A DNA stretch of 63,968 nt, the filler included. It is 6 parts of 6 records of this genome, joined end to end, with 100 filler letters (N's around TTAATTAATTAA, not from the genome) between each part and the next. Parts side by side here need not be neighbours in the genome. Positions count along the whole stretch, not along the records: positions 19,959 to 35,905 come from DRR723986_10280; 5 more parts are not named here. The stretch is one strand, 5' to 3'. The notes under the pieces were generated by a model. It worked only from the letters and a program-made list of their open reading frames with translations, ran no database searches and was not told where the DNA came from. Position numbers and translations under genes: made by a program. Below, in pieces: positions 9,760 to 36,005 of this stretch (within the stretch, counting starts at the first letter, position 1; the number at the start of each line of letters is the position of its first letter).

Positions 9760-9859
9760 NNNNNNNNNNNNNNNNNNNNNNNNNNNNNNNNNNNNNNNNN
9801 NNNTTAATTAATTAANNNNNNNNNNNNNNNNNNNNNNNNNNNNNNNNNNNNNNNNNNNN
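9760..9859. other. Artificial contig linker
   Basis: N-run, TTAATTAATTAA (stops in all six frames), N-run. Confidence 0.98.
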
Positions 9860-19858: not shown

Positions 19859-19958
19859 NNNNNNNNNNNNNNNNNNNNNNNNNNNNNNNNNNNNNNNNNN
19901 NNTTAATTAATTAANNNNNNNNNNNNNNNNNNNNNNNNNNNNNNNNNNNNNNNNNNNN
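19859..19958. other. Artificial contig linker
   Basis: N-run, TTAATTAATTAA, N-run. Confidence 0.98.
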
Positions 19959-19988
19959 CGAATTTACACCACGCCCCGGGACGCTACC
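19959..19988. mobile_element. Probable IS256-family terminal inverted repeat inserted in the terminase gene
   Basis: TTTACACCACGCCCCGGGACGCTACC reads YTTPRDAT, a pattern recalled from IS256 ends; terminase similarity stops right after MQRLSE. Confidence 0.6.
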
Positions 19989-20624
19989 TTCGGAAAGTCG
20001 CTGCATCACTAACACAGTTCTGAATTCTGCCGGACTGTTGGTGCGGCTTGAGAAGGTGTTGTCGAAAAACTCTGCGGTCTTCGCGCAAACAGCTTCATTG
20101 TCTGCGTCTGATGCTTTCAAGGGATCGTCGATGATGTGGATATGAGCGCCTTGCCCAGTCACACCCCCATCGACCCAAACTGCCTTGCGGAAACCTCCTT
20201 CAGACAAATGGGTTTCTGATTCCGTGTCCTTTGCCGGTTTGTTTGCAAACACAGGAAAGATCGCCTGGATTTCCGGATGGGAAATCAGCTTTCGGAATGT
20301 CCGGTGGATGGATGTCGCCAGATCCTGCGAATAGCTGGCGACCAGGATACGCAAGGTAGGGTCGTGCCCCAGCAAGAAGGCTGGCCATGCAACCGATATG
20401 ATCTCTGACTTCAATGAGCGAGGTGGCATCAGGACCATGAGATTGCGATTATCACCATCCCGGACACGGTCCATTTGGTAACATATCGCGTCGATATGAT
20501 AGTTGTCCTTGAGTGGTTCTCCGGGATGGAGGCACTCATAACATTTTCTGGCAAAGGTGCCAAAATCCAGTCGGCATGCTGCATAAATTTCGGCTTTGGT
20601 GGGCGTGGACTCAGTCGGAGTCAT
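19989..20624 (-). CDS. Terminase large subunit-like ATPase, N-terminal part (interrupted)
   Basis: MPPRSLKS (Walker A), ILVASYSQDLA, IIDDPLK (Walker B) and VMQRL motifs; ATG 20624 after AAGGAGG. Confidence 0.82.
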
Positions 20625-21003
20625 TTTGTCCCTCCTTTGATACCAGGGTTCTTGCCAGGAACTTCTTGAGGAGCGCTTCATCCTCTGCCGTCGCCGGCAT
20701 ATTGGCGGCGGTCATACCGGTATCCTGTGGCAGGTGTATAGCGGCGAGCTTCAGCAGCTCCGCAAGGGCTTTGACGTTGCCCGAAAGTGCATCATTTACG
20801 AGTTTCATGACCGCAGCCTCGAGCTTTGTCGTCCTGGTTTTCTTACCTTGGACCCTGATCTCGATCTTCGAAGCGAGTTCCTTCTGGATGACCGACCTAA
20901 GCGATTTCGCGCCCTTTGGCCGGCCCTGCGGGTTGCCGGACTGGCCGGGTTTGAACTGCGACTTCTTGGGCGGCTTGCTATAGCCAATGGGCTCCTTGCT
21001 CAT
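20611..21003 (-). CDS. DUF5681-like protein (candidate terminase small subunit)
   Basis: IGYSKPP..QFKPGQSGNPQGRPKG motif; ATGA overlap with the MTase stop. Confidence 0.82.
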   Translation of the reverse strand: MSKEPIGYSKPPKKSQFKPGQSGNPQGRPKGAKSLRSVIQKELASKIEIRVQGKKTRTTKLEAAVMKLVNDALSGNVKALAELLKLAAIHLPQDTGMTAANMPATAEDEALLKKFLARTLVSKEGQNDSD

Positions 21004-22355
21004 GCCTCGCCCTCCTTGTCCGGAGGTGGCAGGAGCAAAGTAGCCGGTGCGGGCAGGGCGATGACGCCTGGCGGGCTGGGTCTCTCCAGCAAGGCTTTGC
21101 AGCCCGTCATCTCCTCCCATCGCCGCACTGCGACATCACAATACTTGGGCTCCAGTTCGATGACGCGGGCGCGGCGATTGGTGCGCTCGGCAGCGAGGAT
21201 GAGTGTGCCGGAGCCACCGAAGCCGTCGATGCAGATGTCACCTGGCGCAGAGGCATCCAGGAGGGCGTCCGCGACCATGGCGACGGGTTTCACCGTTGGA
21301 TGATCGGCGAGGTCCTGGTCGCGACCTTTGCGGAATGTATTGGCACCAGGATAAGACCATACGTTCGAACGGTTCCGGCCGAACCGGCCGAGTTGAACAT
21401 TGTTGAGATGAGGTGCGATGCCAACTTTGTAGACCAGGAATAACTCGTGACGGGATCTGTAGAATGAACCCATGCCGGCATTGGTCTTGGTCCAGACGAT
21501 CATGTTGAGGTAATCATCGTAGATCGGGTCAGCGGCTGCGAAGAGTTCGCGCAGATGCCTGTGGTCGATTGCAATTAAGTGCACTCCGCCGTCGAGTGTG
21601 CAATTAATTGCATTCTGGAGGGCGGCGGTGAGGAACCCGGTGAATTCATCGGAAGTCATTTCACCGGACGCCATGGCGAACTCATCGTGACCTTTGGATG
21701 AAACGTGCCCCCGGATCCGGACATTGTAGGGCGGATCGGTAAAGCAGACGCGCGCGACCTCGCCACGCATCAGACGGTCCCAGATCGCCGCTTCCAGGCA
21801 GCTGCCACAGATCAGGCGGTGATCACCGAGGATCCAGACATCGCCCGGTTGGGTGACCGGGATAGTCGGGGGCTGAGGAACAGGAGGCTCATCCTCAGTT
21901 TCGTCGTCTGGACCGATCACAAGATCGATTTCGCCGATGTCGAAGCCTGTGGTTTCGAGATCGATGTCGCAGCCCATCTCGACCAGCATCGAGAGTTCCT
22001 GCTTCAGGGTGGGGCGATCCCATGATCCGTCTTCCACCAATTTGTTCGATGAGAGAACGAATGATGCTTTCTGATCCGGCGACATATGAGAAACGCGGAT
22101 GGCCGGGATGAACTCCAGGCCGATGAATTGGTAGGCCTTCACCCTTTCATGTCCGGACAGAATTGTGTTGTGTTCGTCGATGATGATCGGATCAAGCAGG
22201 CCAACATCCTGAATGGATTTGATCAGCTTCTTGAGTTTGCTGGCCGAATGCCGGCGGGCGCGCCGTGGGTAAATGATCAATGTCGCAATTGCGACGCGTA
22301 TGACCGTCGGCATAAACCCATTCAAATACGGGTCGGGTTCGGGCGTGTTGCCCAT
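21000..22355 (-). CDS. ParB/Srx-N fused beta-class DNA amino-methyltransferase
   Basis: N-terminal PIIIDE..ILSGHER; DPPYN (motif IV) before HPTVKP and DGFGGSG (motif I). Confidence 0.92.
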   Translation of the reverse strand: MGNTPEPDPYLNGFMPTVIRVAIATLIIYPRRARRHSASKLKKLIKSIQDVGLLDPIIIDEHNTILSGHERVKAYQFIGLEFIPAIRVSHMSPDQKASFVLSSNKLVEDGSWDRPTLKQELSMLVEMGCDIDLETTGFDIGEIDLVIGPDDETEDEPPVPQPPTIPVTQPGDVWILGDHRLICGSCLEAAIWDRLMRGEVARVCFTDPPYNVRIRGHVSSKGHDEFAMASGEMTSDEFTGFLTAALQNAINCTLDGGVHLIAIDHRHLRELFAAADPIYDDYLNMIVWTKTNAGMGSFYRSRHELFLVYKVGIAPHLNNVQLGRFGRNRSNVWSYPGANTFRKGRDQDLADHPTVKPVAMVADALLDASAPGDICIDGFGGSGTLILAAERTNRRARVIELEPKYCDVAVRRWEEMTGCKALLERPSPPGVIALPAPATLLLPPPDKEGEA

Positions 22356-22358
22356 CGA

Positions 22359-22425
22359 AGTCTCCTTTGTAACGCGAACGAAACCTTCGGAATTTTCCGA
22401 GAGTTTCGTCGGCGTACTGGAGACT
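22359..22425 (-). promoter_or_regulatory. Long 5'-leader hairpin sequestering the MTase RBS
   Basis: Nested pairings AGTCTCC/GGAGACT, GTA.CGC/GCGTAC, ACGAAAC/GTTTCGT and TCGGAA/TTCCGA. Confidence 0.75.
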
Positions 22426-22561
22426 GACCGGCGTGCCCGACAGGAGCGTATTGAGCACCCCGGTATTGCGCCGGGGCCGGTAAGATCAGCGTGCCGTCAA
22501 TTTGATGACTGAACCTGTCGATGGCAAGGGCTGCATGATTCGGTCGAGTGGCGCAAGAGCG

Positions 22562-23167
22562 TTATTCCTTGGAATAGGCCGATGTAACCGCATCCCGAAA
22601 CGCCTTCAGCTCGTTGATGTGAAACCGTCCATCCCGGTCGACGCCGGATTGTCCCTGGATGCGAAAAGCGAAGACCGTCTCATCTTTGGCTTCCATGTCC
22701 GAGATGACCTGGTCCAGTTCTTCGGGCGTGAATTCAAACACCATGTCTTCCCGGTGCATGCAGCCATAGGAGGAGCAGCGATTGGCATTGAACGATACGC
22801 GCTCGACCGGCCGCGTTGAGAGCGTATGTTGGAAGGTTACAGAGACCGGGTGAAGCCAGGTACCGTTGATGTCGCTGGTGACATAGCCCTGCAGGGCGAC
22901 ATGTCCCGCATCGCGAAACTTGTAGCCGCGAAGGAACTGATCTTCCTGCGGGCCCCAGACAAACTGGAAATCCTGGTAAGCGCCGCGCGTGTTGATTTCG
23001 ATGGAGGGATTGAGCGGTTCATCCACAACGCTCACGCCGGCAGCAAAGTCCGGCTCCGTCATGGCGAGGAAGGCATTCTCCCGTTCTTCAAGTGTCTCGG
23101 TGACAGCGCATCCGGATAAGACGAGGGCCAGGGCAGGGGCGGCGAGCGAGATTTTGTGGGTCAGCAT
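22562..23167 (-). CDS. Lipoprotein of unknown function
   Basis: Lipobox LSGC; RBS AAGGAG; C-terminal CSSYGC pair. Confidence 0.8.
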   Translation of the reverse strand: MLTHKISLAAPALALVLSGCAVTETLEERENAFLAMTEPDFAAGVSVVDEPLNPSIEINTRGAYQDFQFVWGPQEDQFLRGYKFRDAGHVALQGYVTSDINGTWLHPVSVTFQHTLSTRPVERVSFNANRCSSYGCMHREDMVFEFTPEELDQVISDMEAKDETVFAFRIQGQSGVDRDGRFHINELKAFRDAVTSAYSKE

Positions 23168-23235
23168 GGAAACTCCTTTTGCATTCAATGAGTCTCATTA
23201 CCGCTCAGCTCGCGCCGGAACTCAAGCGAAAAAGA

Positions 23236-23266
23236 GACTCATAGTCTGTAGATCAATCGACAGCAT
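23236..23266 (+). promoter_or_regulatory. C-box (controller protein operator)
   Basis: GACT-CAT-AGTC-TGTA-GATC-AAT-CGAC-AGCAT, 18 nt before an ATG with no SD; matches PvuII/AhdI-type C-box architecture. Confidence 0.8.
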
Positions 23267-23284
23267 CAGCGTCGCTTGGGCGCC

Positions 23285-23494
23285 ATGGATATCCGCAAGA
23301 AATTTGGCAAACGGCTCCGTGCCCTGCGGGAAGAGCGAGGCTGGTCGCAGGAAGAGTTTGCCGATCGGGCAGGACTCCACAGGACCTATGTGTCAGCCGT
23401 TGAGCGAGGTGTGCGCAACCCCACGCTTTCTGTGTTGGAGCGGCTGGCGAAGGCGCTCGGCGTGTCGATGGCAGAACTGGTTCAGGCGATCTAG
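23285..23494 (+). CDS. XRE-family HTH protein, C (controller) protein type
   Basis: FGKRLRALR..SQEEFADRAGLHRTYVSAVERGVRNPTL motif. Confidence 0.88.
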   Translation: MDIRKKFGKRLRALREERGWSQEEFADRAGLHRTYVSAVERGVRNPTLSVLERLAKALGVSMAELVQAI

Positions 23495-23573
23495 GCTGGC
23501 GACCTGACTTTCCTGCAGCTTCTCCACTCTGACGCGGGTTGAGTGCCCGATCCAAAGCCGTCATCTTTCCCTC

Positions 23574-24284
23574 ATGTGTGGCAAGTTCTCTTACATGGCG
23601 ACCTGGGCCGAAGTGCACAGCTTCTCGCAGCCACTTGCCGCGCGTCCCAGCAATGCGCCGGAAGAGACAGCCACACCCATGCGCCGTGCACCGGTCATGC
23701 ACCTTGGCGATGGCAGTCGCACTATGACGGAAATGCGCTGGGGGTTCACGAGAGAGCGGCACGGGCGCCTCTATCCCGATCACATCCATGCGCGGGACGA
23801 CAAGCTGCTCTCGTCCCGTCTATGGCGCCCGCATTTTGAAGAGCGGCGCGGCCTGCTCATCGTCAACAGCTTCAACGAGGGTGAAGAGGTCCCGACCTAC
23901 AAACCGGACCGCGTTACACCGACCGGCAATACGAAGACCGTCCAATGGACGATCCGGCCGAAGGATGGCTCGCGCCTGGCGATTGCGGTTATCTACCGGG
24001 AGGCCCCTTCACCCGATGGGGCGGTGATGGAATTTGTGATGTGCACGACGCTGGCCAACAAGGGGATATCCGAATTTGTCATTGGCGATCCGGACCAGCG
24101 TATGCCGGCGGTCCCGAATGAATCCGACATACCCGTCTGGCTGGGGGAGGCGCCGGCCAGCCTCGAAGAGGTGCGCGCCTGTCTTCGTCCCTATGAAGAT
24201 GATGGAGCCTGGGACATGCGACCTGAAGAGCACGGCAAGTCACCAGCTAAGCACAGGGCATCCGGCCAGGGCGACCTTTTTTAG
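23574..24284 (+). CDS. SOS response-associated peptidase (SRAP/YedK/HMCES-like)
   Basis: N-terminal MCG; MRWG, HAR, FNE and RMP motifs; C-terminal QGDLF. Confidence 0.85.
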   Translation: MCGKFSYMATWAEVHSFSQPLAARPSNAPEETATPMRRAPVMHLGDGSRTMTEMRWGFTRERHGRLYPDHIHARDDKLLSSRLWRPHFEERRGLLIVNSFNEGEEVPTYKPDRVTPTGNTKTVQWTIRPKDGSRLAIAVIYREAPSPDGAVMEFVMCTTLANKGISEFVIGDPDQRMPAVPNESDIPVWLGEAPASLEEVRACLRPYEDDGAWDMRPEEHGKSPAKHRASGQGDLF

Positions 24285-24353
24285 GCGTGTGCCTGAGCGT
24301 TCCACAGGAAAATTGGCGGGACGCCTTGCCTTTTACCGGATCAAGGAGAAAAA

Positions 24354-24368
24354 GAACAAAACAAGAAC
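24354..24368 (+). promoter_or_regulatory. Alphaproteobacterial LexA (SOS) box
   Basis: GAAC-AAAACAA-GAAC, 23 nt upstream of ATG 24392. Confidence 0.8.
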
Positions 24369-24391
24369 AATAATTCAGAAGGAGACGCCAA

Positions 24392-24646
24392 ATGGGGCGC
24401 TACAAATCTGTCCTCATGGCGGAGCAGGATGCGCGGGATTTTCCGCACCACGTGTTTGTTCCCGTTCCTCCGAACGGACTTGGAAAACGTATGGATACTA
24501 TTGCCGCCTGGATAGATTTGAACGTTGGGCCTGACTGGCGGATGCATGGGCATCTTGGGAAAGACGGTCACATGGCTTGTTACATGTTCAGGTCAGCGGA
24601 AGAGGCGGGGGTGTTTCAGGCGGCGCTGGAGGCGGGGGAGGTTTAA
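24392..24646 (+). CDS. Small hypothetical protein, probably SOS-inducible
   Basis: 84-aa ORF with strong RBS AAGGAG and an upstream SOS box. Confidence 0.75.
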   Translation: MGRYKSVLMAEQDARDFPHHVFVPVPPNGLGKRMDTIAAWIDLNVGPDWRMHGHLGKDGHMACYMFRSAEEAGVFQAALEAGEV

Positions 24647-24872
24647 TGTGTGGAATGGCGGTTTGGCGATCATCGGCAAGGTGAGCTGCCATAATTCGGA
24701 GTTATTGGGGGCTTCCTTGAGCGCGAGCTGGCATGATGCTCGCTAAGTGTACTGACGGTTCGAATATCGCTTTCACCCAATGTGCAGATCCCGTCGCGGC
24801 TAGGGGCTCTGTCAGACACCCCGGGCGGGCCCGCCGAAATGTTCGTAAGCAGATAATAGGGGCGGAACGGGA

Positions 24873-25343
24873 CTACCGTTCCACGCAAATGAATTTCATA
24901 TGAGCGATGTTCCCGCCTTCCGGCAGGTCCGGGAGCGCTGCGCGCGGATCGGCGACTGCGGCTTCTTCAGCGCCGTCAAGCACGAGCTGGCTGAGAATGT
25001 CCGACATGGAAGCAGCATAGGTTCCGTCTGCAGCACCGTCGCAGGTATAGGGCAGGGCCCCGTCTGAAAATTCTGTTGACGGCCTGAGGCTGAGACTGAT
25101 GTCGCTGCAATAGGAGTTTGCCGCGAACTGGGCCGTATCGGCAAGCGCCTCGCAGGAGCGATCTGGTCTCTTCGTCGTTATGACCAGGACCCCGCCCTCG
25201 CGCTCGCCGGCAAGTCGTGTGATGCAGCTGCCGGAATAGGTGCCGCTATAGTCGCAAGCTTTGTCCCCAGCGGGTTCGGCGGCAGCCGGCTGGGACAAGA
25301 GGCAAAGGGCAGCAAGGCCCGACAGGCTCAGATATTGCGACAT
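24873..25343 (-). CDS. Secreted cysteine-rich hypothetical protein
   Basis: Signal peptide MSQYL..PAAA; six Cys in the mature part. Confidence 0.65.
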   Translation of the reverse strand: MSQYLSLSGLAALCLLSQPAAAEPAGDKACDYSGTYSGSCITRLAGEREGGVLVITTKRPDRSCEALADTAQFAANSYCSDISLSLRPSTEFSDGALPYTCDGAADGTYAASMSDILSQLVLDGAEEAAVADPRAALPDLPEGGNIAHMKFICVER

Positions 25344-25515
25344 GGTTTCGCCCCGTTCGATCTCTTGGAGCGGCCAGTGTTCGTCGAGATTCAGAATTTT
25401 TGCAAGCGCCAAAATTCGACTTTAAATCGAACGATATGTGTACGAATTATAACAATTGACAGGTGCGGGGGATGCTCGTTTAGGTGGCATTGCAGTTTTG
25501 GGGCAGGGGGTGCCG

Positions 25516-25923
25516 GTGAAGTTATTTGTGGCCATTGGCCTTTGTCTGGTCGCTCTTCTTCCTGTCGCTCGGGCTCAGACCGCAACCGCGACTTACACCT
25601 ATGACGCGCTCGGCCGCCTGACGGGAAGCGCCAGCACTCCGCTGCCCCCGCCAGCAAGTAACCAGGCGCCTGTCGCTCAGGACGCTTACTATGTTTGTGA
25701 TGCCCATGAGAAAATCATCATCCATGCCTGGCATGTCTCGACGGATCCCGACGGGGATTTGCTCACATATGACTATGTCTCTCAGGGCGCCCTGTCGAAT
25801 GGCAACCAGACCCTGACGATCTGGTCCTCATCAACACACGGGGCTTCCATTTTTATCAACTATACCGTGTCGGACGGCCATGGCGGGACCGATTCCAGCG
25901 TCATCACCTTGTACTCAGAGTAG
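25516..25923 (+). CDS. Small secreted protein: single YD repeat plus Ig/cadherin-like domain
   Basis: Signal peptide (..ARA|Q), TYTYDALGRLT, Pro linker, then NQAPVAQD..DPDGD.LT..YTVSDGHGG. Confidence 0.75.
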   Translation: MKLFVAIGLCLVALLPVARAQTATATYTYDALGRLTGSASTPLPPPASNQAPVAQDAYYVCDAHEKIIIHAWHVSTDPDGDLLTYDYVSQGALSNGNQTLTIWSSSTHGASIFINYTVSDGHGGTDSSVITLYSE

Positions 25924-26008
25924 CCTTTTTCCTGCTGTCCAGCAGTAAGGCTGCCAAACCGGGCGCACCCTGCTGTTTACCCAGACATCCATTGAGCCGA
26001 GGAAGCCA

Positions 26009-29000
26009 ATGCGCCTGAAGTTTTCGAGATTTTTTGCGTCGGTGATAATTGCGTCGCTTGTGTCGGGAGGGCTGGCCGAGTGCTTTGCGCAAACAGCGCC
26101 GCCGCCGAAGACCGAACTCGAGAAGCGCCAAGGCGCAGAATACCGTCTGACGGCCTTCGGTCCGGACCTGATGGGCGATGGGATAGATCCCCACACCGGA
26201 ACGATCCAGTTTTCGCAAACGGATGTCAGCCTGCCGGGCAATTTCCCGTTGGAAGTCGCGATTCGCCGTAAACGTAGTCAGGGCCGCTTCTACCAACCGG
26301 GCGTTGCCGTCGAATTTGGAGACTGGCAGCTGGATGTGCCTCGCATCAACGTGGTGCTGGCTTCGTCCATAAACTGGACTGGCAACCGTTGCTCCATGTC
26401 GTTCGGGTCGTATTTTACGCCGGTCTATCAGGGCGGCACGCAGTTTACCGCATCGAAGTACTCAAACGGGGTTATCCTCGATGCAGGCGGATCGCCGGGC
26501 CAGCAGGTCATGCAATCACCGCAGGGCGCACAATGGCCGGCAGGTACAACGCATGTGACCGTCGATGACTGGAGGCTCAACTGCATCACAGCTTCGGATG
26601 GCGGGCAGGGCTTCCTGGCTTATGCGCCGAATGGGGATCAGTACCGGTTCGATCGCTATTACAAGATCGATACAGAGGCCCTCGGAGCGGAGAGTCCGAC
26701 AGGGCCGTGGATTCCGCGTAAGCGGCACATTCTTGCCGCGACGCAGGTGACCGATGTCAATGGCAACACGGTCAATTACAATTACGATTCATCCAACAGG
26801 CTGACATCGATTGTCGCGAGTGATGGCCGACGCATCGATCTTGCCTATAGCGGTTCAGGAAAACTGATTCAGAGCGTCACCGCAAATCCGGGAGTCTCAG
26901 GTGAGCGGGAGTGGGTTTATACTTACGGGACGGTTTATACATCCTTTGACCAGGAGCCCAATGTCGGCATTACAAACGCCTTGACGTCCGCAACGCTTCC
27001 GGACGGCAAGTCTTGGACTTTCGATATTGCCGGGATGGCCGCCAACCCGGGGCTTGGCCTGCACTGTCCGCAAGCCGATCAGACCCTCACGATGACCCAC
27101 CCCTACGGCACTGTGGGTGTGTTCAAGCTGAAAGAGCGCCGGCACCGGCAGAGCCTCAACGAGCAGGACCAGATCCGCGAGACGTGTCCCAACGAAGACG
27201 TCAGCGGCGGCGATCCGAGCCTCAACCCGTACAAGCTGCGCGTCGCGCGCATCATGTCGACGGTCGAGAAGCGCCTTACCGGTCCGAACCTGCCGGCTAT
27301 GGTCTGGCTGTACGACTACGAAAGTGACCAAGGCGACCCGGGGTCGTCCGCCAGCGACCCGACGAACTGGTCCAAGGTTCTCGACCCTGAGGGCCACCAG
27401 ACAAAATATTACCACCGTTGGACCCGGGATCCGCTTGGCGGAAAGCTCGTCAAGAAGGAAGTCCGCGATACGCCGAGCAGTCCGGTTCTCGAGACAACAA
27501 CTTATTCCTATGTGCAGGAGGCGTCCATTGGGTCGCCTGTGTCCGGGTTTGCACACGCGACGACCTCGTTCAAGAAGACCCTAATCGACACCGTGACCAT
27601 CGCGCGCGAAAGCTATACGATGTCGACGCAGTCGAGCTACGACAACAGTTTCTCGTCCGCGACCTACAGCTTTGGGAACCCGACGACGATCGTCCGGGGG
27701 TCCAGCCTCGGCGGCAATCGCACGCAGACCCTCACCTATGAGCACAACAAGACGAAATGGGTCTTGGGGCTTCCGCTGACGTCGACTTTCAATGGCCGGC
27801 TCTACGACAGCTATCATTATGACGCGTATGGCCGCGCGGACCTTCAGTACAAGTATGGCGTTCTGGCGCAAACCTATGCCTACGAAACCGCAACAGGCGC
27901 AAAAGGCGCGCTCAAGTCGGCAAAGAATGCCCTCAATGAAACGGCCACCTTCAATCAATGGAAGCGCGGCATCCCGCAGCAAATCATCCGGCCGGATCTG
28001 ACAAGCATCACCCGCGTCGTCGATAATAATGGCTGGGTCACATCTCAGACGGACGCAAAAGGGACGACGACGGGGTTCACGTACAACGCCATGGGGTGGT
28101 TGACGTCCATTAATGTTCCCTCTCCCTGGGCTGATGCGACGCTGACCTATACCGGGCTCGGGACGACCAATGCCTATTCGACGGCGACGGTCGGTACGAT
28201 CGAGACGGTCGTCTGGTACGACGCATTCCTCCGTCCGTACAAGGTGCGCACACGTCCAATCAGCGGCGGCGGGCTGACGAGCTTCATCAAGACGACCTAT
28301 GACGGGCTGGGGCAAACTGTCTTCACCTCGCTGCCGTCAACCTCGTCTAATCCGACGACCGGCACAGAAACGGAATATGATGCCCTGGGGCGCGTCCTGA
28401 AGGTCAGGGACAATATCACAAATGGCTTCACGGCGACCGCGTACCTGACAAATGGTCAGACGCAGGTCACGGATCCAAAGGGCAATGTGACTACAACGAC
28501 GAGCCGGTTCTATGGGGCGCCTGACACGGCCGAAGTGACGCAGATCGTCCAGCCTCTGGGTCTCACATCGACCTTTAGCTATGACACCTGGGGCAACATG
28601 ACCCTTCTGAACCAGTCCGGTTCCCAGAATGGCTATACGTCCAACATCAACCGGCAGTTCTGGTACGATACGCGCAACAGGCTCTGCCGGCACAGGGCGC
28701 CGGAGCTGGGCGATGAGCTCTTTGGTTATGACGCGCTCGATCGGTTGACAAAGAAGGCGAGTGGGCAATCGGCGGCCAGCGGTTGCGTGACGACTTTGCC
28801 TGCCGCGGCCACAACGACAACCGTCTATGACGAGATGGGCCGGGTCACGGACATCAACTTCCCGTCCGGATCGGGCACGCCGAACATTGTCAAAGACTAT
28901 GACGATAACGGCAATCTGACATCGGTTACCCGGAACGGCATTGCCTGGGCCTACGACTATAACGCGCTCGATATGCTGGATGAGGAAGAGCTCCAGCTCG

Positions 29001-30748
29001 ATGGTCGTACCTACCAGTTTACTTATGGATATACCCCGGAAGGATTCCTGTCTTCTGTCGGACGTCCCTGGGGATCGAGTGCGGACTTTGTCCTGAATGG
29101 GCTTGGCCAGCCGACGGGCCTCATCGCGAACGGTTCGGCCATCGCTTACGGCGGAACATATTTTGTGAACGGTCAGATGGCTGGTTTGTCGCTCAGCAAC
29201 GGGTTCGCATATTCGGCAACGCAGAATTCGCGGCAGCTGGTTGAGACCTCGAAGGCCGTCAAAGGAACGACCAAGGCGTTCGATGCGACGTATACATATG
29301 ATCCGGTGCTTCCGCGGATCGCGTCGATTACCGACAATGCGGGGATCGGTAATGCCGGTCCATGGGGCACGGCGACCTACACCTACGATATCCTGAGCAA
29401 TATGCGCCGGCAGGTGATCGACACGACGCGCACAATCGACATCAACTACAATTCGGCCAACCGTGTCTCCCAGTATCGCGACGATGCTGTCAGCTCCTCG
29501 TGGAATACAGTCTCACACGACGCGCGCGGCAACGTCACCACCAAAGGCGGGCTGGGCTTTGTCTATGATTTTGCCAACCAGCCGACAGCGGTGACCGGAG
29601 CCGTCAGCGCAACTTACACCTATGATGGTAATCTCAAGCGGGTAAAATCGTTCGAAGGCGGGGACACAACTTATTCCATATATTCCTCTTTGAGCGGAAA
29701 AATATCTGCCATTGATAATCCGACATCCGGCGCGCGCTTCACCATCGTCAACATGGGGCCTGTGTCGATCCGGCTCAATCTGGACGGAACGTTTGAGTTT
29801 ACCCATAACGACCACCTTGGCAGCCCTGTTGCCAGCACCAGCTCATCAGGCTCAGTGCTTTGGGTAGAGTCCTATCTTCCATTCGGGGAGAAGCGCTATG
29901 ACCCGGCCGCGAACCGGGACAAGCCAGGGTTCACCGGACACATTGATGATGACGCAACCGGCCTGACCTACATGCAGGCGCGGTACTATGATCCCGTGCT
30001 CGCAAGGTTCCTGTCGACAGACCCCATCGGATATCGGGATCAGATGAACCTGTATGCGTATGTTGGAAACAATCCAGTGAATATGACTGATCCATCGGGG
30101 ACGAGGGCGAATACGGCTGCGCCTACCGGAAATACGTGTTCTCGGGTGGGGGGAAACAGTTGTGCTGGACACTACACAGATGGCGCTAAGATGGGAAAGA
30201 TATCTTCTGCGCCGATCCCTACAGCTGGTGGAAACAGCGGTGCCAGGGGCGGCGGCGGTGCGCGTCGCCCTGGCATTGGGCACAATAGCCGCGCGAACTA
30301 CGGTCCGCGTCGCCGGCAGTATGAGGAGTCTAGAGAAGATATTGCGCGCAATGATCCGCTTAATCCGCGAAGTGCCCCTATTATTGCCAGCGATTCTTGG
30401 GAGCCGACTGCCCAGCAGGTACAAGATATGGAAGTGGCAGCGCTTGCCTCTGACTATTACGCTGGAATACGAACAATGATTTTCGATCAGGCGCAGGTGC
30501 CGGGACCCAGTTCTGTGTTGATCGCTCCGAGTGAGAGCGAAGTGATGCGCATGGGGCGCGAGTTTGTTGGTCCGAGTGCCCGGATGACAAGCAATGGTAA
30601 GGGGTGGTACGATGATGCGTCAGGTCGGACTTTTCGCTTCCCAACTGAGAAAGGCTCTCGCGAGGGTAGTTGGGCAAATTTCCAACAAAAGTTCCCAGAT
30701 GGAACCGAGTCAAATGTGCATGTGCGGGTTTCCCCACCGTTTCCGTGA
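26009..30748 (+). CDS. Signal-peptide Rhs/YD-repeat polymorphic toxin
   Basis: Sec signal; many YDxxGR repeats; core DHLGSP..GFTGH..YMQARYYDP..FLSTDP..PVNMTDPSG; 215-aa C-terminal extension from 30101. Confidence 0.92.
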   Translation: MRLKFSRFFASVIIASLVSGGLAECFAQTAPPPKTELEKRQGAEYRLTAFGPDLMGDGIDPHTGTIQFSQTDVSLPGNFPLEVAIRRKRSQGRFYQPGVAVEFGDWQLDVPRINVVLASSINWTGNRCSMSFGSYFTPVYQGGTQFTASKYSNGVILDAGGSPGQQVMQSPQGAQWPAGTTHVTVDDWRLNCITASDGGQGFLAYAPNGDQYRFDRYYKIDTEALGAESPTGPWIPRKRHILAATQVTDVNGNTVNYNYDSSNRLTSIVASDGRRIDLAYSGSGKLIQSVTANPGVSGEREWVYTYGTVYTSFDQEPNVGITNALTSATLPDGKSWTFDIAGMAANPGLGLHCPQADQTLTMTHPYGTVGVFKLKERRHRQSLNEQDQIRETCPNEDVSGGDPSLNPYKLRVARIMSTVEKRLTGPNLPAMVWLYDYESDQGDPGSSASDPTNWSKVLDPEGHQTKYYHRWTRDPLGGKLVKKEVRDTPSSPVLETTTYSYVQEASIGSPVSGFAHATTSFKKTLIDTVTIARESYTMSTQSSYDNSFSSATYSFGNPTTIVRGSSLGGNRTQTLTYEHNKTKWVLGLPLTSTFNGRLYDSYHYDAYGRADLQYKYGVLAQTYAYETATGAKGALKSAKNALNETATFNQWKRGIPQQIIRPDLTSITRVVDNNGWVTSQTDAKGTTTGFTYNAMGWLTSINVPSPWADATLTYTGLGTTNAYSTATVGTIETVVWYDAFLRPYKVRTRPISGGGLTSFIKTTYDGLGQTVFTSLPSTSSNPTTGTETEYDALGRVLKVRDNITNGFTATAYLTNGQTQVTDPKGNVTTTTSRFYGAPDTAEVTQIVQPLGLTSTFSYDTWGNMTLLNQSGSQNGYTSNINRQFWYDTRNRLCRHRAPELGDELFGYDALDRLTKKASGQSAASGCVTTLPAAATTTTVYDEMGRVTDINFPSGSGTPNIVKDYDDNGNLTSVTRNGIAWAYDYNALDMLDEEELQLDGRTYQFTYGYTPEGFLSSVGRPWGSSADFVLNGLGQPTGLIANGSAIAYGGTYFVNGQMAGLSLSNGFAYSATQNSRQLVETSKAVKGTTKAFDATYTYDPVLPRIASITDNAGIGNAGPWGTATYTYDILSNMRRQVIDTTRTIDINYNSANRVSQYRDDAVSSSWNTVSHDARGNVTTKGGLGFVYDFANQPTAVTGAVSATYTYDGNLKRVKSFEGGDTTYSIYSSLSGKISAIDNPTSGARFTIVNMGPVSIRLNLDGTFEFTHNDHLGSPVASTSSSGSVLWVESYLPFGEKRYDPAANRDKPGFTGHIDDDATGLTYMQARYYDPVLARFLSTDPIGYRDQMNLYAYVGNNPVNMTDPSGTRANTAAPTGNTCSRVGGNSCAGHYTDGAKMGKISSAPIPTAGGNSGARGGGGARRPGIGHNSRANYGPRRRQYEESREDIARNDPLNPRSAPIIASDSWEPTAQQVQDMEVAALASDYYAGIRTMIFDQAQVPGPSSVLIAPSESEVMRMGREFVGPSARMTSNGKGWYDDASGRTFRFPTEKGSREGSWANFQQKFPDGTESNVHVRVSPPFP

Positions 30749-30824
30749 TTGCCATATCGAGCTAAGTCTTATCCCCGCGGTCTTTCTGCATTAATGCGTC
30801 CCTTCAGCGCGAATCGGAGTTGGA

Positions 30825-31226
30825 ATGAAAAACGTTCGAATACGACTAAGATCGTGGGACTTAGGGGTCGATGATCAATTCGCAAACAGGCAGATCGACG
30901 CCAAGGACATGCCTGAAATAATAGTGCATATGTACTTGAGCTGGGGGGATAATCTCTCTGAAGACGTCTTTTCTCTTACAATAGTTCCGCATACGAAAAT
31001 CATGCAGAGCAGGATGTGTTACTTTAGTAGAGTGCTCGTTGTGACTGACGTTTTCCACGCTAGTGAAGTCGTTCAGGCAATCTCTGATTCTCTTCAGGAA
31101 TTGAGTTTTGATTCGAAAGAGGACGCGCTAACGCACCTAAGGCAGTTATTTGAGTGGGAATTCGAACCCGAACCGGATGCGCAATTTCGGAATAGGCTCA
31201 ATGCAGCTTTGGCATCAGGGAAATGA
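30825..31226 (+). CDS. Cognate immunity protein, Imm8-like
   Basis: Directly after the Rhs gene; AT-richer; EDVFSLTIV and C-terminal FEWEFE (WE-aromatic) motifs. Confidence 0.7.
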   Translation: MKNVRIRLRSWDLGVDDQFANRQIDAKDMPEIIVHMYLSWGDNLSEDVFSLTIVPHTKIMQSRMCYFSRVLVVTDVFHASEVVQAISDSLQELSFDSKEDALTHLRQLFEWEFEPEPDAQFRNRLNAALASGK

Positions 31227-31746
31227 CATTTGGGCTACTTCGAATGGTCTGCAGGATAACTTAGGCAAGACCGCTTTCGTCGGCTTCATGCTTAATGAGC
31301 GTCCGGCCTCGCATATGAGCCTGGTGCTCATATACCGGGCACTCTGTGCGGTCTAGCCTGACAGAATGTATGAAGCGACATATGAACGGTAAGACAGCAT
31401 TATAACTACAACAAAGGAAGCGTGGGGTTTCGTCGCGAATTTGGTCGGTCGTCTGGAATTTGTGTCCGTGTATCAGACGGGCAATTCAGTGCGTGAGCGG
31501 AGGATTTAGGGGGGGGCTGTATAAGGAGATTGCTTCGCTGCCGAATTTTAGTTTGGTTGACCCTGATTGACCGGCCACTTGGGCTGGAAAGGCGTCGGCG
31601 CATCAAGCCGATTTGCTCAGATATGAAGCGCGTTGGCTGCGTGGCGCGTGCGGTCACCAATAGTATCGCATTCGCCGAGTAGGATGTCCCGAATTCCAAC
31701 ATTGTGGTTTGATAAAGCAGCGCGGATTTCTCTGCCGCGTCGCGCC

Positions 31747-32235
31747 TTACTGGTTAAATAGGCGAAGCGACTTCGCGGTGCTGCCGTGCCGAAATGTTAC
31801 TTCATTGTTGACTATTGAACTTACGTGTCCCCAAGGCGTATCATCGCCAACTCGAACGGATATGGCTGTTGCACCAGGCGCCCATTCAATAAGAGCAGAG
31901 GCGTTCGCGCCGCTCCCGGATATTCCCAACAGTCGTGGCTCGTGCTGCGGCTCAACGATTTCCACCGCTTGCTCCATCCTGGAAAATGCTTTCCGCTCAG
32001 GCGAAAATCCGGATCGATTACAAATGTCCGACGCAAAAACCGCAAGCTGATCTTCCGTCCAAACCAAAAACGCGACCGGCTCTGCCTGGGCCTCCGCGGG
32101 GACAGCGCTTTCCGTCGCGGCCTCACGCCCGACCGGTCCGGGGGCCGGGAGTCCGCTTGCCCAAATCCCGGATCCGGCGATCGCGGCCGAGAGCAACATC
32201 AAAAACAGCGGTAAGGCGGGCCAGGCGCGCGTCAT
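31747..32235 (-). CDS. T2SS accessory protein (GspC/GspN-like)
   Basis: Single TM, FSPERK and PRLLGISG..ASALI motifs; last gene of a coupled gsp operon. Confidence 0.5.
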   Translation of the reverse strand: MTRAWPALPLFLMLLSAAIAGSGIWASGLPAPGPVGREAATESAVPAEAQAEPVAFLVWTEDQLAVFASDICNRSGFSPERKAFSRMEQAVEIVEPQHEPRLLGISGSGANASALIEWAPGATAISVRVGDDTPWGHVSSIVNNEVTFRHGSTAKSLRLFNQ

Positions 32236-32771
32236 GGGACAATCTCCGACCAGACAGACATGTCCAGTGCGATGCGGAGGTGCCGGTCCGGACTGGTCGT
32301 GGGAGATGTCGTCCGGATGTTCGTATTGTCGAGGAGAACGGGGTATTCCACCCCGGCAAGACCTTCCAGGACCTCCGTCACGGTCTGCAGGTCTCCTTCG
32401 AAGACGAGATGCAGACGCAGTGCCACAAGGCCCTCCGGTGTTGTGAATGCAGGCAATTCCCGTATGTCCGCCACCTGGCCGCCGTGCGCGTTCACCAGTG
32501 TGATCAACTCGTTCTGGAGCGTGGTCCCAAGGCTGTTGTCGGATACGCTCGTCAGATATGCAGAGTAGGCTTCAAACCGATTTGGCGGCAGGGGGCGGGT
32601 GAGGCGTGTCTCGAACGCCAACATGCGCTCCTCCGTGCCTTGCAACAATTGCCACTTTTCGAAGATTCCGAAACCAGCATTCAGAAGCAGGAGCAAGACC
32701 GTGCCGGACAGAAGGGTCAGCAAGGCGGCGCGTGCCAGCCGGGCGGCAAGAGGGGGCGTCTCTGTCCTCAT
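32232..32771 (-). CDS. gspM: T2SS protein GspM/PilO-like
   Basis: N-terminal TM, short coiled coil and ferredoxin-like pattern; follows gspL. Confidence 0.6.
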   Translation of the reverse strand: MRTETPPLAARLARAALLTLLSGTVLLLLLNAGFGIFEKWQLLQGTEERMLAFETRLTRPLPPNRFEAYSAYLTSVSDNSLGTTLQNELITLVNAHGGQVADIRELPAFTTPEGLVALRLHLVFEGDLQTVTEVLEGLAGVEYPVLLDNTNIRTTSPTTSPDRHLRIALDMSVWSEIVP

Positions 32772-33697
32772 TTCGTCCCCGTCTCGATCGTGATCACGAA
32801 CGCTTCAGTTCTATCCGGACGTGTGGAGACAGGCTGCGCAAACCGCACGGGATAATCGGGGTAAGCCTGCACCAGGCTCGTAAGCGTCTCGGCTGCGTTA
32901 CGGGAAGCGCCGCTGATGCGGATCGAAGTCCCGTCGAAGTCGACGGAAGTCCACCAGGCATTCGGCGGCGTGTTCTGCGTGAGCTCTGCCAGGGCCGACA
33001 TGCGCCCGGCAGGCGATAGAAGGTCGGGTTGCATTGCGGCAATCCGGCCGAGCGCACCGGTTTCCCGCTCCATTGTGTCCCGTTCAAGGAGACGGGCCCG
33101 AAGTTCGCGTTCCTGTATCAGCGAGGCTTTAACCGAGTTTTCGAGCCAGGTATCGACACCGGCCAGAAGGGCAAACAGGCTGGCGATGAAGCAGATGAGC
33201 GATACGATCAGAAATCTTGCCTCAAGTTTCTGGTCCAGGTGCTGCGCGGGCGGCGTCCAGGCATTGTCCGTCCCCGGTGCGATAAGCTGAAGATCCGCCA
33301 GTCCGAGTGTCCGGGATTTTTCTTGAAGCCGGTCGATCAGGTCGTTTCGAAGATGAAGGAATTCCAGCCCTCCCGGGCGGCCCGCCTCTTGCCGGACGAG
33401 CACGATTTCGTCTGCCTCGGCCAGCGGCGCCAGCCTGCGCAGCTCGTTTCGCGCAATTTTCTTCAGGTCGGCATGAGAGGTCGCCTTGCCATCGAAGTCA
33501 TGGGTATAGGCATCGGCCTTTCCCAACCGGATGAGCGGCACTTCGTCTGGTTTCTTTTCGAGGCTCAGAAACGCTTCCAGCGGTATTGCGGCGTCGGCGC
33601 TGACACAAGCATGCGGCTCCGAACGCCGGCCCAGCATGAAGGAGAGCGCACGATCCAATCGGGAGGGAGTCTGCCAGAGAAGGCCTGAGGGTTTCAC
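32768..33697 (-). CDS. gspL: T2SS protein GspL/PilN-like
   Basis: Cytoplasmic domain, TM, then LAELTQNTPPNAWWTSV..IRISGAS PilN-like motif; GTGA overlap with the upstream gene. Confidence 0.7.
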   Translation of the reverse strand: MKPSGLLWQTPSRLDRALSFMLGRRSEPHACVSADAAIPLEAFLSLEKKPDEVPLIRLGKADAYTHDFDGKATSHADLKKIARNELRRLAPLAEADEIVLVRQEAGRPGGLEFLHLRNDLIDRLQEKSRTLGLADLQLIAPGTDNAWTPPAQHLDQKLEARFLIVSLICFIASLFALLAGVDTWLENSVKASLIQERELRARLLERDTMERETGALGRIAAMQPDLLSPAGRMSALAELTQNTPPNAWWTSVDFDGTSIRISGASRNAAETLTSLVQAYPDYPVRFAQPVSTRPDRTEAFVITIETGTK

Positions 33698-34014
33698 ACG
33701 CACCTCCGTCCGATCGGGTCGAACCGGCACGCTGCGGTGCGGTCTATGCGCGCCGCCGAAAGGGCGAGGGGCGCGCCATCATCGATCGCAAGGACCGCAC
33801 CGTCGCCCAGGGGCGCGTGGGATTTGACGAGCGCTTCGTCTGCAAGGGCCGCGGGATAAATTGCCTCAAGCGCGTGGATATCATCGACGATTGTGCCAAG
33901 CCGTGACCAGGTCCGGCCCTGCTGGAATATGGCCTCGCCCAGAAACATCATGCCGAGCGACAGGACGACCAGAGCGGCAAGCAGTTCGGCGACGGTGAAG
34001 CCATCATCCCGCAT
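33694..34014 (-). CDS. Short prepilin-type pseudopilin (GspJ-like)
   Basis: MRDDG|FTVAELL prepilin peptidase site. Confidence 0.7.
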   Translation of the reverse strand: MRDDGFTVAELLAALVVLSLGMMFLGEAIFQQGRTWSRLGTIVDDIHALEAIYPAALADEALVKSHAPLGDGAVLAIDDGAPLALSAARIDRTAACRFDPIGRRCV

Positions 34015-34381
34015 TGTCGGCACTCCGCAGGCGAACCGTCCTGGCCGTGATCGAGGTATCTGCGCCGGAACCTGCCCTCCAGGAAACGGTGACCTGAATG
34101 TCCGAAAAGACGACGCGGTCACCCTCTGCAGAAGCGCGCTCCGTATCCTGGCGTGACCAATGAAACCCTTTCCCCTGAATGACAAAATCACCCGCATCCT
34201 CACGGATCGACGGATCCTCGAGCACGGCCCGGGCCACATAGGCTGCGATCAACCGGTCATGCGCGCGGGTTACCGCTTTCTGGCTGGTCACATTGAATGA
34301 CAGGAAGCTTGTCAGGAACAGGCTGCAAATCAGGAGTGCGACGAGCGCGTCTGCGAGGACAAATCCGGATTCCTGTTTCAT
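34004..34381 (-). CDS. Pseudopilin (GspI-like)
   Basis: ESG|FVLADAL prepilin site (Asp at +5); C-terminal IQVTVSW. Confidence 0.65.
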   Translation of the reverse strand: MKQESGFVLADALVALLICSLFLTSFLSFNVTSQKAVTRAHDRLIAAYVARAVLEDPSIREDAGDFVIQGKGFHWSRQDTERASAEGDRVVFSDIQVTVSWRAGSGADTSITARTVRLRSADNAG

Positions 34382-35565
34382 TGGATCGCATCTCCCATTC
34401 CGGAGAGCGTCCCGAGGATGGAGAGCATAAGGCCGGCAATGGTGGCGCCCATGCCGATCACGAGAGCAGGGCCGAGGATGCCGGAAAGCCGGTCGATGCC
34501 AGACATGGCCCGCGCATGGCAGATCCGGCCTGCTTGGCGTACGGAGTTCGCAAAAGCGCCTGAGCGTTCACCGAGAAGGGCAAGCCGCTGGAGTTCGGGC
34601 GGCAGTCCGTCCGTCCGGCTGAAGGCTGCACTCAGGACTTCTCCGTCCCGTATGCGGGCGGCGATCCGGTCCCAGGTCTTCGCAAGCCGGGGATTGGAGG
34701 TCGAGGCGGCAAAACGGAGCGCCGTTTCAAGTGGCCGGCCGGCATCGAGCAACGCGGCAAGAACCTCACAGGATTGTCCGACCTCGAGGTCGCGCGAGAG
34801 ACCGCGGATACCGGGCAGGGCAAAGAAGACCTGTGCAATCGATCTTCTGACAGACAAATTCCGCCCCGCCAGAAACAATGCCCCCACGAGCAGGGCAAGT
34901 CCCGCAAAGACAAGGGACGAATTGACCTTCAGCCAACCCCCGGTTCCGGCCAGCGCAAGGACAAAGCCGCCACTGCCGCTGTCTTCGAGGATCGGGGCGA
35001 GCGCGGGAGCGACGTAGAGCGTGATGACAGTCAGGGCAATGAGCCCGAGGCAGGTGATGAAAAGCGGGTAGGCGAGGGCTTCGCGTATTTTCGTAAGGGC
35101 CGCAGACCTGTCGGCCAGGAAGCCCGCTCCTTTTTCAAGGAGCGTGTCCAGGCCAGCGCCTGCTTCGCCCGCAGCGGCGAACTCCGCCAGCATGGCTGCG
35201 CCGCCGCCAGCGCTGCGGAGTGCCGAGGACAGGGAACCGCCCGCATCGACAGCGCGAAGCGTGTCGCGCGCGAGCCTTGCCGGCCCGCCCCTTCCTTTTG
35301 ACTGGATATCGAGGGCATTGCGCAGCGGCGCGCCGGCTTTCAGGAGCGCAGCAAGTTCGGACGCGAAGGCTGAGGCTTCCAGCGGGGTGACGTTCGTGCG
35401 TTGCTCGAGCGCGAACCAGCGACGCGCCGAGCTTTCCCTTATGTCGATCAGGAGATCGCCCCCGGCCGCGATGAGCTGGCGTGCCTGCGCCTCGCCGGGC
35501 GCAGAAATCACCCCCTTGCGGCGGGCGCCTGTGCGGTCAATCGCGGAGTACTGGAACCGGGCCAT
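34378..35565 (-). CDS. gspF: T2SS inner membrane platform protein GspF
   Basis: MARFQYSAID, AGEAGA, ALAYP and GERSG motifs. Confidence 0.88.
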   Translation of the reverse strand: MARFQYSAIDRTGARRKGVISAPGEAQARQLIAAGGDLLIDIRESSARRWFALEQRTNVTPLEASAFASELAALLKAGAPLRNALDIQSKGRGGPARLARDTLRAVDAGGSLSSALRSAGGGAAMLAEFAAAGEAGAGLDTLLEKGAGFLADRSAALTKIREALAYPLFITCLGLIALTVITLYVAPALAPILEDSGSGGFVLALAGTGGWLKVNSSLVFAGLALLVGALFLAGRNLSVRRSIAQVFFALPGIRGLSRDLEVGQSCEVLAALLDAGRPLETALRFAASTSNPRLAKTWDRIAARIRDGEVLSAAFSRTDGLPPELQRLALLGERSGAFANSVRQAGRICHARAMSGIDRLSGILGPALVIGMGATIAGLMLSILGTLSGMGDAIQ

Positions 35566-35567
35566 GG

Positions 35568-35876
35568 TCAGAGCAGCCCCACGATTTCAGAAAACGTGGT
35601 GCGTCCTTCCGCAGCGAGGCGGAGCGCCTGCGCTGCAAGCGCCTGGCCTGGCGCAACCGGTTCTGCGTGACGGGAGAATTCTGCAAGCGCAAGGCGCCCG
35701 GAAAAACCTTCGTTGCGGCAATGCGAGCAGCCTGACGGCCGGAAGAGATCGCTCGGGGCCGTAAGGCCGTGGTGATGGAACGTTCCGGCTTGCGGTTCGG
35801 TGATCGGCACGAGCGTCTTGCAATGCTCGCAAAGGGTCCGGACAAGCCGCTGTGCCATTGCGCCCAGGAGGCAGGC
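35568..35876 (-). pseudogene. gspE: GspE ATPase C-terminal fragment, interrupted at its 5' side
   Basis: AQRLVRTLCEHC..GCSHC..GFSGR Zn module and GRTTFSE; similarity ends at a TGTTGATT IS-like end. Confidence 0.75.
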
Positions 35877-35905
35877 TGTTGATTGCCGTTGAGAATTGAC
35901 CCTGG
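35877..35905. mobile_element. Probable IS21-family terminal inverted repeat
   Basis: TGTTGATTGCCGTTGAGAATTGACCC at the contig end, TG-start pattern recalled from IS21 ends. Confidence 0.65.
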
Positions 35906-36005
35906 NNNNNNNNNNNNNNNNNNNNNNNNNNNNNNNNNNNNNNNNNNNNTTAATTAATTAANNNNNNNNNNNNNNNNNNNNNNNNNNNNNNNNNNNNNNN
36001 NNNNN
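35906..36005. other. Artificial contig linker
   Basis: N-run, TTAATTAATTAA, N-run. Confidence 0.98.

Follow-up and report, generated by a model that had tools for sequence, protein, structure and literature searches.

The window examined in this study, a stretch of 63,968 nucleotides (nt) of DNA, contains a small gene (positions 25516–25923, forward strand, GTG start codon, TAG stop codon) whose product of 135 amino acids (P0001) combines a YD repeat with an immunoglobulin (Ig)-like domain and is encoded directly upstream of an Rhs toxin gene. We refer to this gene and its relatives as H. Our analyses indicate that H is probably an undescribed accessory family of Rhs toxins that act independently of a type VI secretion system (T6SS), and that its members probably hang add-on modules on the toxin container. 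The fuller proposal, whose chances we judge to be about even, is that the product of the window gene is an accessory subunit dedicated to an Rhs toxin that is Sec-exported and T6SS-independent, and that this subunit docks onto its partner by strand addition. No description of the H family was found in the literature; the supplementary synteny figures of a 2025 preprint (10.1101/2025.05.08.652813), which we have not seen, might show a small upstream open reading frame (ORF) in families linked to a type II secretion system (T2SS).

The assembly, export, and targeting of T6SS-independent Rhs toxins with signal peptides are largely unknown, and the H family provides a concrete handle on these processes. 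An Rhs cocoon with a YD subunit supplied in trans would be without precedent, and this is what docking of H on the shell would amount to. Binding modules could then be exchanged without touching the toxin gene of 4–5 kb.

The H protein of the window and its closest relatives

A first-pass annotation, made from the nucleotide sequence alone, had described the 135-amino-acid ORF as a signal peptide followed by a single YD repeat, a Pro-rich linker, and an Ig-like domain, with the gene located 85 nt upstream of the Rhs gene. This description is confirmed by Pfam and NCBIfam matches that exceed their cut-offs, and by the positions of the H stop codon (ending at 25923) and the Rhs ATG (26009). The ORF is intact, and a Shine-Dalgarno-like run precedes its GTG codon. 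All parts described below lie on the forward strand.

Residues 1–20 (25516–25575) resemble a Sec signal peptide by inspection, with K2, a hydrophobic run, and A-R-A preceding Q21. Cleavage is predicted after A-R-A, so that the mature protein would start at position 25576; in the family alignment, the mature N-terminus also falls at the column of Q21, shortly ahead of the first YD motif. The mature protein begins QTATATYTYDALGRLT, and its single YD repeat (residues 21–39, 25576–25632; core T-Y-T-Y-D-A-L-G-R-L) is recognized by Pfam, by NCBIfam, in the alignment, and by profiles made from H proteins only. Pfam RHS_repeat (PF05593) matches residues 20–39 with 24.3 bits (cut-off 22), and NCBIfam YD_repeat_2x (TIGR01643) matches residues 23–37 with 21.2 bits (cut-off 15.8). 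These matches cover model positions 13–31 of 38 and 16–30 of 42, respectively, which in each model corresponds to one of two motifs. Residues Y27, Y29, D30, A31, G33, R34, and L35 occupy invariant columns of the family, whose signature is T-x-T-Y-x-Y-D-A-x-G-R-L.

The linker TPLPPPASNQAP (residues 40–48, 25633–25659) is Pro-rich, as is apparent from the sequence and the alignment, and joins the YD repeat to a Big_9 or cadherin-like Ig domain (residues 49–132, 25660–25911). Big_9 (PF17963) matches this entire segment with an E value of 1.5e-9 (39 bits versus a cut-off of 23.6; model positions 1–88 of 89), and Cadherin_5 (PF17892) matches residues 49–130 with an E value of 3e-7 (30.6 bits versus 26.5). 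The domain keeps D77, G80, L83, Y116, G123, and T125, which are invariant columns among Big_9 family members.

The N-terminal match is specific to the family and is not a chance resemblance, since profiles built from other members with the window protein excluded score its N-terminus at 19–23 bits, versus no more than 6.7 bits for any internal repeat of the neighboring Rhs protein. With one repeat and no Rhs-associated core, P0001 lies outside the definition of a shell-forming Rhs protein (many YD repeats plus the TIGR03696 core). It also has no Pfam or NCBIfam match at E ≤ 1 to EagR/DUF1795, PAAR, or VgrG, the helpers of T6SS-delivered Rhs proteins.

A search for relatives among 5.8 billion proteins returned 14, with lengths of 162–203 amino acids. 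Thirteen of them were aligned with the window protein and share a common plan: a signal peptide, two YD repeats (T-Y-T-Y-D-A-L-G-R-L, then Y-D-x-A-G-N-R), a Pro-rich linker, and Big_9, frequently with a C-terminal Cys. One YD motif corresponds to one hairpin turn, hence the “2x” in the name of TIGR01643, so that two YD repeats are normal for the family and the window protein, with one, departs from this. The single-YD form that the first-pass annotation emphasized thus holds for P0001 but not for the family. Judged by its sequence, the window gene is a divergent, shortened member of the H family.

Linkage between H and Rhs genes

The first-pass annotation had proposed examining whether single-YD genes consistently precede such Rhs genes, with variable C-terminal domains. 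For small YD genes, the outcome is positive in both directions. We searched 301 Sphingomonadaceae genomes with the H alignment and fetched the surroundings of each listed match that covered the YD part. This procedure yielded 58 distinct H genes, of which the 54 with at least 3 kb of downstream sequence were assessable; at least four more genomes have H genes that fell below the search threshold. In 47 of the 54, a same-strand Rhs-like ORF starts between −264 and +2619 nt downstream. The window gene shows the same arrangement, being directly upstream of a signal-peptide Rhs gene, co-oriented with it, and separated from it by 85 nt (25924–26008, forward strand). This spacer carries a GAGGAAG-like ribosome-binding site, and no terminator-like site was found in a simple scan of it.

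The other seven assessable H genes are varied. Two lie beside a divergent Rhs gene (at 141 and 929 nt) and one lies 2.6 kb from a divergent two-piece Rhs. Another is followed by a T2SS operon, with Rhs genes 15 kb farther on, and three have no intact Rhs gene downstream.

For the reverse tally, which was made by hand, the 68 listed Rhs frames with a length of 745 amino acids or more were reduced to 63 by removing four at contig starts and one tandem second copy; 16 further Rhs core matches outside the listed frames were left out. An H gene lies upstream on the same strand in 47 of the 63 and is divergently adjacent in five more, such that 52 are neighbored by H. Of the 301 genomes, 77 contain an Rhs core (TIGR03696), and among the 42 that carry H the count is 38.

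The linkage extends beyond these genomes. In a class-wide sample, H was found in two of 401 genomes, the center genome being one of them; in the other (G387), which is outside Sphingomonadaceae, H lies 76 nt ahead of an Rhs-like gene of 1667 codons. A contig scan with a Big_9-containing H alignment recovered one true relative among 79 loci, in Sphingomonas soli (L077), where H is followed by a 620-amino-acid exported protein, an 847-amino-acid Rhs protein, and an immunity gene; this genome has a second such locus. A metagenome scan with the first 364 amino acids of the window Rhs protein (P0002) identified four relatives for which the upstream region is present. One of these (47% identity) is preceded at 17 nt by an H gene whose product carries two YD repeats along with five Big_9 domains.

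Two further settings were noted. At two loci of one genome (L159 and L173 of G190), H is divergent from Rhs and is followed by genes that resemble a conjugative type IV secretion set by size and order. A plasmid collection contained one H-like copy (L211), on a plasmid of Novosphingobium sp. EMRT-2 (NZ_CP039699.1, 130898–131595). It consists of a partial, unannotated YD segment and then an annotated “Calx-beta domain-containing protein,” and it is disrupted and flanked by IS21 elements, with no Rhs gene nearby.

A constant YD unit with exchangeable C-termini

The constant part of H consists of the signal peptide and the YD unit, and nothing else. Among 97 bare forms, which end after this unit, the invariant residues include E, T, Y, Y, D, A, G, R … G … N … Y … D … N, R … T. 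The family is abundant and its members carry only generic names. A profile of the bare forms matches at least 3465 cluster representatives of 37–175 amino acids at E ≤ 1e-5 (7999 candidates scored), and matches past the best 120 may include fragments. The best 120 are 69–86 amino acids long and are named “hypothetical,” “YD repeat-containing,” or “RHS repeat domain-containing.” Named sources are Parablastomonas, Allosphingosinicella, Tsuneonella, Pelagerythrobacter, and Sphingopyxis, which we take to be Sphingomonadales, together with Novosphingobium, which is placed in the same order.

What follows the YD unit differs among members. In a Pfam tally of 65 H proteins, Big_9 is present in 18 (alone in 16, with Calx-beta in two). 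Calx-beta is present in eight: the two just mentioned, five in which it occurs alone, and one in which it is joined by a sub-threshold B-lectin match. Two of the five are arrays with four and eight matched stretches (653 and 942 amino acids). B-lectin is found in three proteins, including the sub-threshold case. One genome (G237) carries two H genes whose YD units are 88% identical, one leading into Big_9 (this copy is frameshifted) and the other into Calx-beta. The swappable module anticipated by the first-pass annotation is therefore supported: The YD unit stays constant, and the remainder is absent or is Big_9, Calx-beta, B-lectin, or an array.

Since adhesins commonly contain Big_9, Calx-beta, or B-lectin modules, H might instead be an independent secreted adhesin or surface protein that travels with Rhs genes in mobile islands and has no interaction with their products. 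The few H genes that lack an Rhs gene, and the plasmid copy that lies beside IS21 elements only, would be explained in this way. However, the two genes are closely linked in the same orientation, often just tens of nt apart, and this linkage recurs in many genomes and with both one-piece and two-piece Rhs architectures. Moreover, the sole invariant part of H is an Rhs-type repeat, and bare forms have no adhesin domain. We consider an unconnected adhesin to be quite improbable.

Purifying selection on H genes

The Ig part of P0001 is common in isolation, as 78 of the 79 loci in the contig scan are Big_9 arrays in giant proteins. This leaves the concern that the window ORF arose by chance or is a piece broken off a longer Rhs or Big_9-array gene; a broken fragment of a longer gene was an outcome that, according to the first-pass annotation, would overturn its proposal. 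Either origin has very little probability. The ORF has its own signal peptide and its own stop codon, and its N-terminus is specific to the H family. The H profile scores 59–115 bits on H proteins, versus at most 19.5 bits on any repeat within 83 Rhs or Rhs-partner ORFs, so that no Rhs repeat resembles the H unit; nor was any Rhs gene without a separate H found, among these 83 ORFs, to have an H-like unit built into it.

Rates of nonsynonymous and synonymous substitution (dN/dS) were compared for seven pairs of H genes, of which the four with unsaturated synonymous sites were used. These informative pairs give dN/dS values of 0.05, 0.14, 0.16, and 0.25. The H family is under purifying selection.

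Export of H-linked Rhs proteins and type II secretion genes

By a crude hydropathy rule, a signal-peptide-like N-terminus is present on all 27 of the 27 Rhs or first-piece proteins encoded downstream of H (one is doubtful), and also on 10 of 12 Rhs proteins without H. TssC, the T6SS sheath protein, is absent from all five H-rich genomes that were checked. Together these results indicate that the H-linked systems are Sec-dependent and T6SS-independent.

Some of these loci adjoin T2SS genes. An 11-gene T2SS variant (GspE, GspF, GspG, three pseudopilins, GspL, GspM of the T2SSM_b type, orf187, GspD, and orf252) occurs in four of the 301 sphingomonad genomes, all of which are Rhs-positive, and all three cases that are assessable show it physically linked to H and/or Rhs. 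The loci concerned are L204 and L143 (G067), L140 and L201 (G162), L202 (G136), and L205 (G264). In G067, H and then Rhs come straight after the operon, and in G162, H and Rhs genes lie on either side of one T2SS operon. A general requirement for a T2SS was considered and is not supported: GspE-like genes occur in ∼20 of the 42 genomes with H versus 142 of the 301 overall, which by this hand count is no enrichment.

In the window, T2SS genes converge on the H–Rhs module (31750–35858, reverse strand). They comprise orf162, GspM (T2SSM_b), a GspL/PilN-like gene, pseudopilins, GspF, and a GspE fragment that sits at the contig end. The window GspF is only 25%–32% identical to sphingomonad GspF proteins, which likewise gives no support to a general T2SS requirement. 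A functional tie between these genes and the H–Rhs module is possible.

In many sphingomonads the Rhs protein itself is split into two separately exported proteins (L120, L123, L124, L131, L133, L135, L142, L151, L153, L156, L163, L168, L171, L172, and L197). The first piece (∼600–720 amino acids) comprises the N-terminal domain and the first YD repeats, with a conserved two-Cys motif at its end, and the second (742–934 amino acids) comprises YD repeats, the core, and the toxin. The split point corresponds to approximately residue 680 of the one-piece P0002 and recalls the division between TcB and TcC.

A strand-addition model and its alternatives

In the mechanism that we propose, H and the Rhs protein would each be exported to the periplasm. 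The YD hairpin or hairpins of H, presumably unable to fold alone, would pair with the exposed edge of the Rhs YD β-sheet by β-strand addition. Docked H would thereby form part of the cocoon surface, and the segment past the Pro-rich linker would project outward. This outward part would be one Big_9 Ig-like domain in the window and Calx-beta, bulb-lectin, or nothing elsewhere, and where present it would be an add-on for binding or spacing. An adjacent T2SS may, in some lineages, be the route by which the assembled particle leaves the cell.

The idea of a module supplied in trans is supported by the linkage and by the exchangeable C-terminus, and docking itself we infer from the nature of the repeats. 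An Atlas model of a bare H protein alone is poor (predicted local distance difference test score, pLDDT, of 0.52), which fits the need for a partner. The mean identity of the H unit (0.45) is like that of the shell (0.40–0.44). In one-piece systems, similarity of the H unit tracks the distal shell best (Mantel r up to 0.67, versus 0.24 for the toxin tip), whereas in two-piece systems H tracks the proximal protein (r of 0.54 versus 0.33).

Several observations weigh against this model. The one-piece and two-piece Mantel results disagree, and we therefore claim no docking site. Four of the 54 assessable H genes have no Rhs gene in reach, and 11 of the 63 sphingomonad Rhs genes have no H nearby. 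Among the four closest metagenome relatives of P0002, three (51%, 47%, and 30% identity) lack H within ∼2.8 kb upstream, where an integrase, a Fic protein, or unrelated ORFs are encoded instead. H is not obligatory for every Rhs protein; it is dispensable for some. Finally, 39 of the 65 H proteins have nothing past the RHS repeat and so carry no module, and ∼25 of these are bare, with a mature peptide of ∼46 residues. Receptor binding, which the first-pass annotation had suggested as a purpose of the protein, consequently cannot be the core function of the family.

The prevalence of bare YD units, which have nothing to display, is one basis for the main rival explanation. By this account, H is a transient periplasmic helper that caps or nucleates the sticky edge of nascent Rhs, or presents Rhs to the T2SS, and is then released. 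T2SS operons adjoin the module in G067, in G162, and in the window, and the available part of the 2025 preprint ties Rhs families of Xanthomonas and Ralstonia to gspG and the T2SS (10.1101/2025.05.08.652813). However, GspE-like genes are not enriched in genomes with H, and a chaperone is a poor fit for proteins with lectin, Ig, or Calx-beta heads, including arrays of four to eight Calx-beta or five Big_9 domains. A transient role is conceivable on this evidence, and we regard it as unlikely.

Three more points against the docking model concern the window protein itself. P0001 has no second YD repeat (Y-x-x-D-x-A-x-N-R), a nearly invariant feature of the family, and it alone among the 14 aligned sequences has a gap over the D-x-A-G-N-R half. 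It lacks the Cys pair that is present in most Big_9-type members, and even its closest relatives among the 5.8 billion proteins searched are just 30%–37% identical to it. A protein with one repeat may bind more weakly or be decaying. In the extreme case, P0001 would be a decaying remnant that lost its second repeat by in-frame deletion and no longer works; its want of the C-terminal Cys fits this reading. Decay of H genes does occur elsewhere, as illustrated by the frameshifted copy in G237 and by matches with internal stops, and the metagenome relative of the window Rhs protein is accompanied by a full two-repeat H. Yet the window ORF is intact and retains its signal peptide, its Shine-Dalgarno-like run, its linker, and a Big_9 domain that scores above the cut-off with its invariant columns preserved. 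A single YD repeat is, in addition, still a complete hairpin motif. Loss of function therefore seems to us improbable, somewhat more so than a transient helper role.

Nine of the 39 module-free H proteins carry a short conserved hydrophobic tail resembling V-V-V-P-L-N-G-F-T-I-I-P-L (L138, L140, L143, L146, L153, L161, L167, L170, and L176). This tail could act as another strand donor.

Comparison with known systems

The YD/RHS shell of the Tc toxin TcB–TcC cocoon (YenB/YenC2, PDB 4IGL) is made from more than one chain, and its sheet is continuous across them. The sphingomonad loci likewise divide Rhs into pieces, and weak matches to the H profile are seen in YenC2 and in further Rhs and teneurin shells of known structure. 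In contrast, no Tc component is known to be a protein of 46–190 amino acids made up of one or two YD repeats, the window has no TcA-like partner, and H-linked Rhs proteins carry Sec signal peptides.

Rhs proteins delivered by a T6SS also have helpers, namely VgrG, PAAR, and EagR/DUF1795, which are encoded by small genes immediately upstream of Rhs and are needed for loading or delivery. Linkage of Rhs genes to DUF1795 and to vgrG/hcp is described in the part of the 2025 preprint that was available (10.1101/2025.05.08.652813). These helpers are cytoplasmic, T6SS-dependent, and of unrelated folds, whereas H is predicted to be Sec-exported and occurs in genomes that lack TssC.

Rhs toxins that do not rely on a T6SS have precedents. 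Bcn-A of Xanthomonas perforans acts from the supernatant, independently of a T6SS, and has small accessory ORFs (PMC7259588), and the families XRhs F VIII and RRhs F II are genetically linked to T2SS genes (10.1101/2025.05.08.652813). In the consulted sections of these reports, the accessory genes are downstream ORFs or gspG, and none is described as a YD mini-protein.

The hit locus of Bdellovibrio offers a biochemical parallel. The small Sec-exported protein Bd0108 is co-transcribed with the exported RHS/YD protein Bd0109 and binds it in vitro (PMC3818213), and according to the same partial text the locus adjoins pilus or type II-like secretion genes. Bd0108 differs from H, so far as a comparison by description permits, in that these portions of the article report for it no recognizable fold and no YD repeat, and it functions in pilus regulation rather than as part of a toxin.

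The closest precedent for exchangeable binding heads supplied in trans to a polymorphic toxin, judging from the accessible text, is provided by the umbrella particles of Streptomyces (UmbA/B/C), in which toxin repeats scaffold separately made, lectin-tipped spokes whose lectin composition varies (PMC11062931). The folds of those repeats and spokes are different, the producers are Gram-positive, and the available description includes no YD repeat; also, the umbrella complex was seen by cryo-electron microscopy, whereas the H complex is a prediction. A broader view, which we put forward tentatively, is that Sec-exported Rhs toxins of Gram-negative bacteria could be modular multi-subunit particles in which a YD mini-protein caps or completes the cocoon and provides a socket for lectin, Ig, or Calx-beta heads, some of them with dedicated T2SS export. 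With split shell proteins, and on the same speculative footing, they could form two- or three-piece particles that would be the Rhs counterpart of umbrella toxins.

Adhesion domains can also reside on the toxin itself. Zhang et al. (2012; PMC3482391) proposed that bulb-lectin, RicinB, discoidin, and similar domains fused in cis to RHS toxins serve in toxin anchoring or target contact. Relative to that account, as far as it was available, H differs in that its modules are carried on a separate protein whose sole constant part is the YD unit.

Surroundings of the module in the window

The Rhs gene downstream of H (26009–30748, forward strand) encodes the 1579-amino-acid P0002, with a signal-peptide-like start, an N-terminal domain, and a YD shell from approximately residue 242. 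It contains five RHS_repeat stretches and an Rhs-associated core at residues 1289–1364, and its many YD repeats and TIGR03696 core place it among the shell-forming Rhs proteins. A profile of the sphingomonad N-terminal Rhs protein gave no hmmsearch match to P0002, and hhalign aligned this profile with residues 242–344 only (probability 95.8%).

The C-terminal toxin region (residues 1366–1579, 214 amino acids; 30104–30745, forward strand) has no Pfam or NCBIfam match and no matching PDB sequence at E ≤ 1. It is followed by an immunity gene of the Pfam Imm8 family (P0003; 30825–31226, forward strand). Imm8 is listed with Tox-EHHH and Ntox7 toxins in the consulted part of Zhang et al. (2012; PMC3482391). 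Given this neighbor, the tip of P0002 may be a divergent nuclease of the Tox-EHHH or Ntox7 kind.

Paired runs of 44 Ns with 12 bases between them recur at five places (9760–9859, 19859–19958, 35906–36005, 46148–46247, and 58597–58696), which indicates that the window consists of several contigs joined end to end. The H–Rhs–Imm8 module is on the part at 19959–35905. An FtsH protein encoded on another part is 58%–60% identical to FtsH of four alphaproteobacterial genomes. Because this identity is modest, the source organism probably falls outside the sphingomonads, the group on which the H family is centered.

A 179-amino-acid ORF with a signal-peptide-like start lies upstream of H and is divergent from it (24876–25412, reverse strand); it has no Pfam family and no relative among the fetched loci. 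Farther upstream (20614–24284) are genes for a DUF5681 protein, a ParB-N/N6_N4 DNA methylase fusion, an XRE regulator, and an SOS-response-associated peptidase. These mobile-looking genes suggest that the Rhs module of the window may reside on an island or a prophage remnant.

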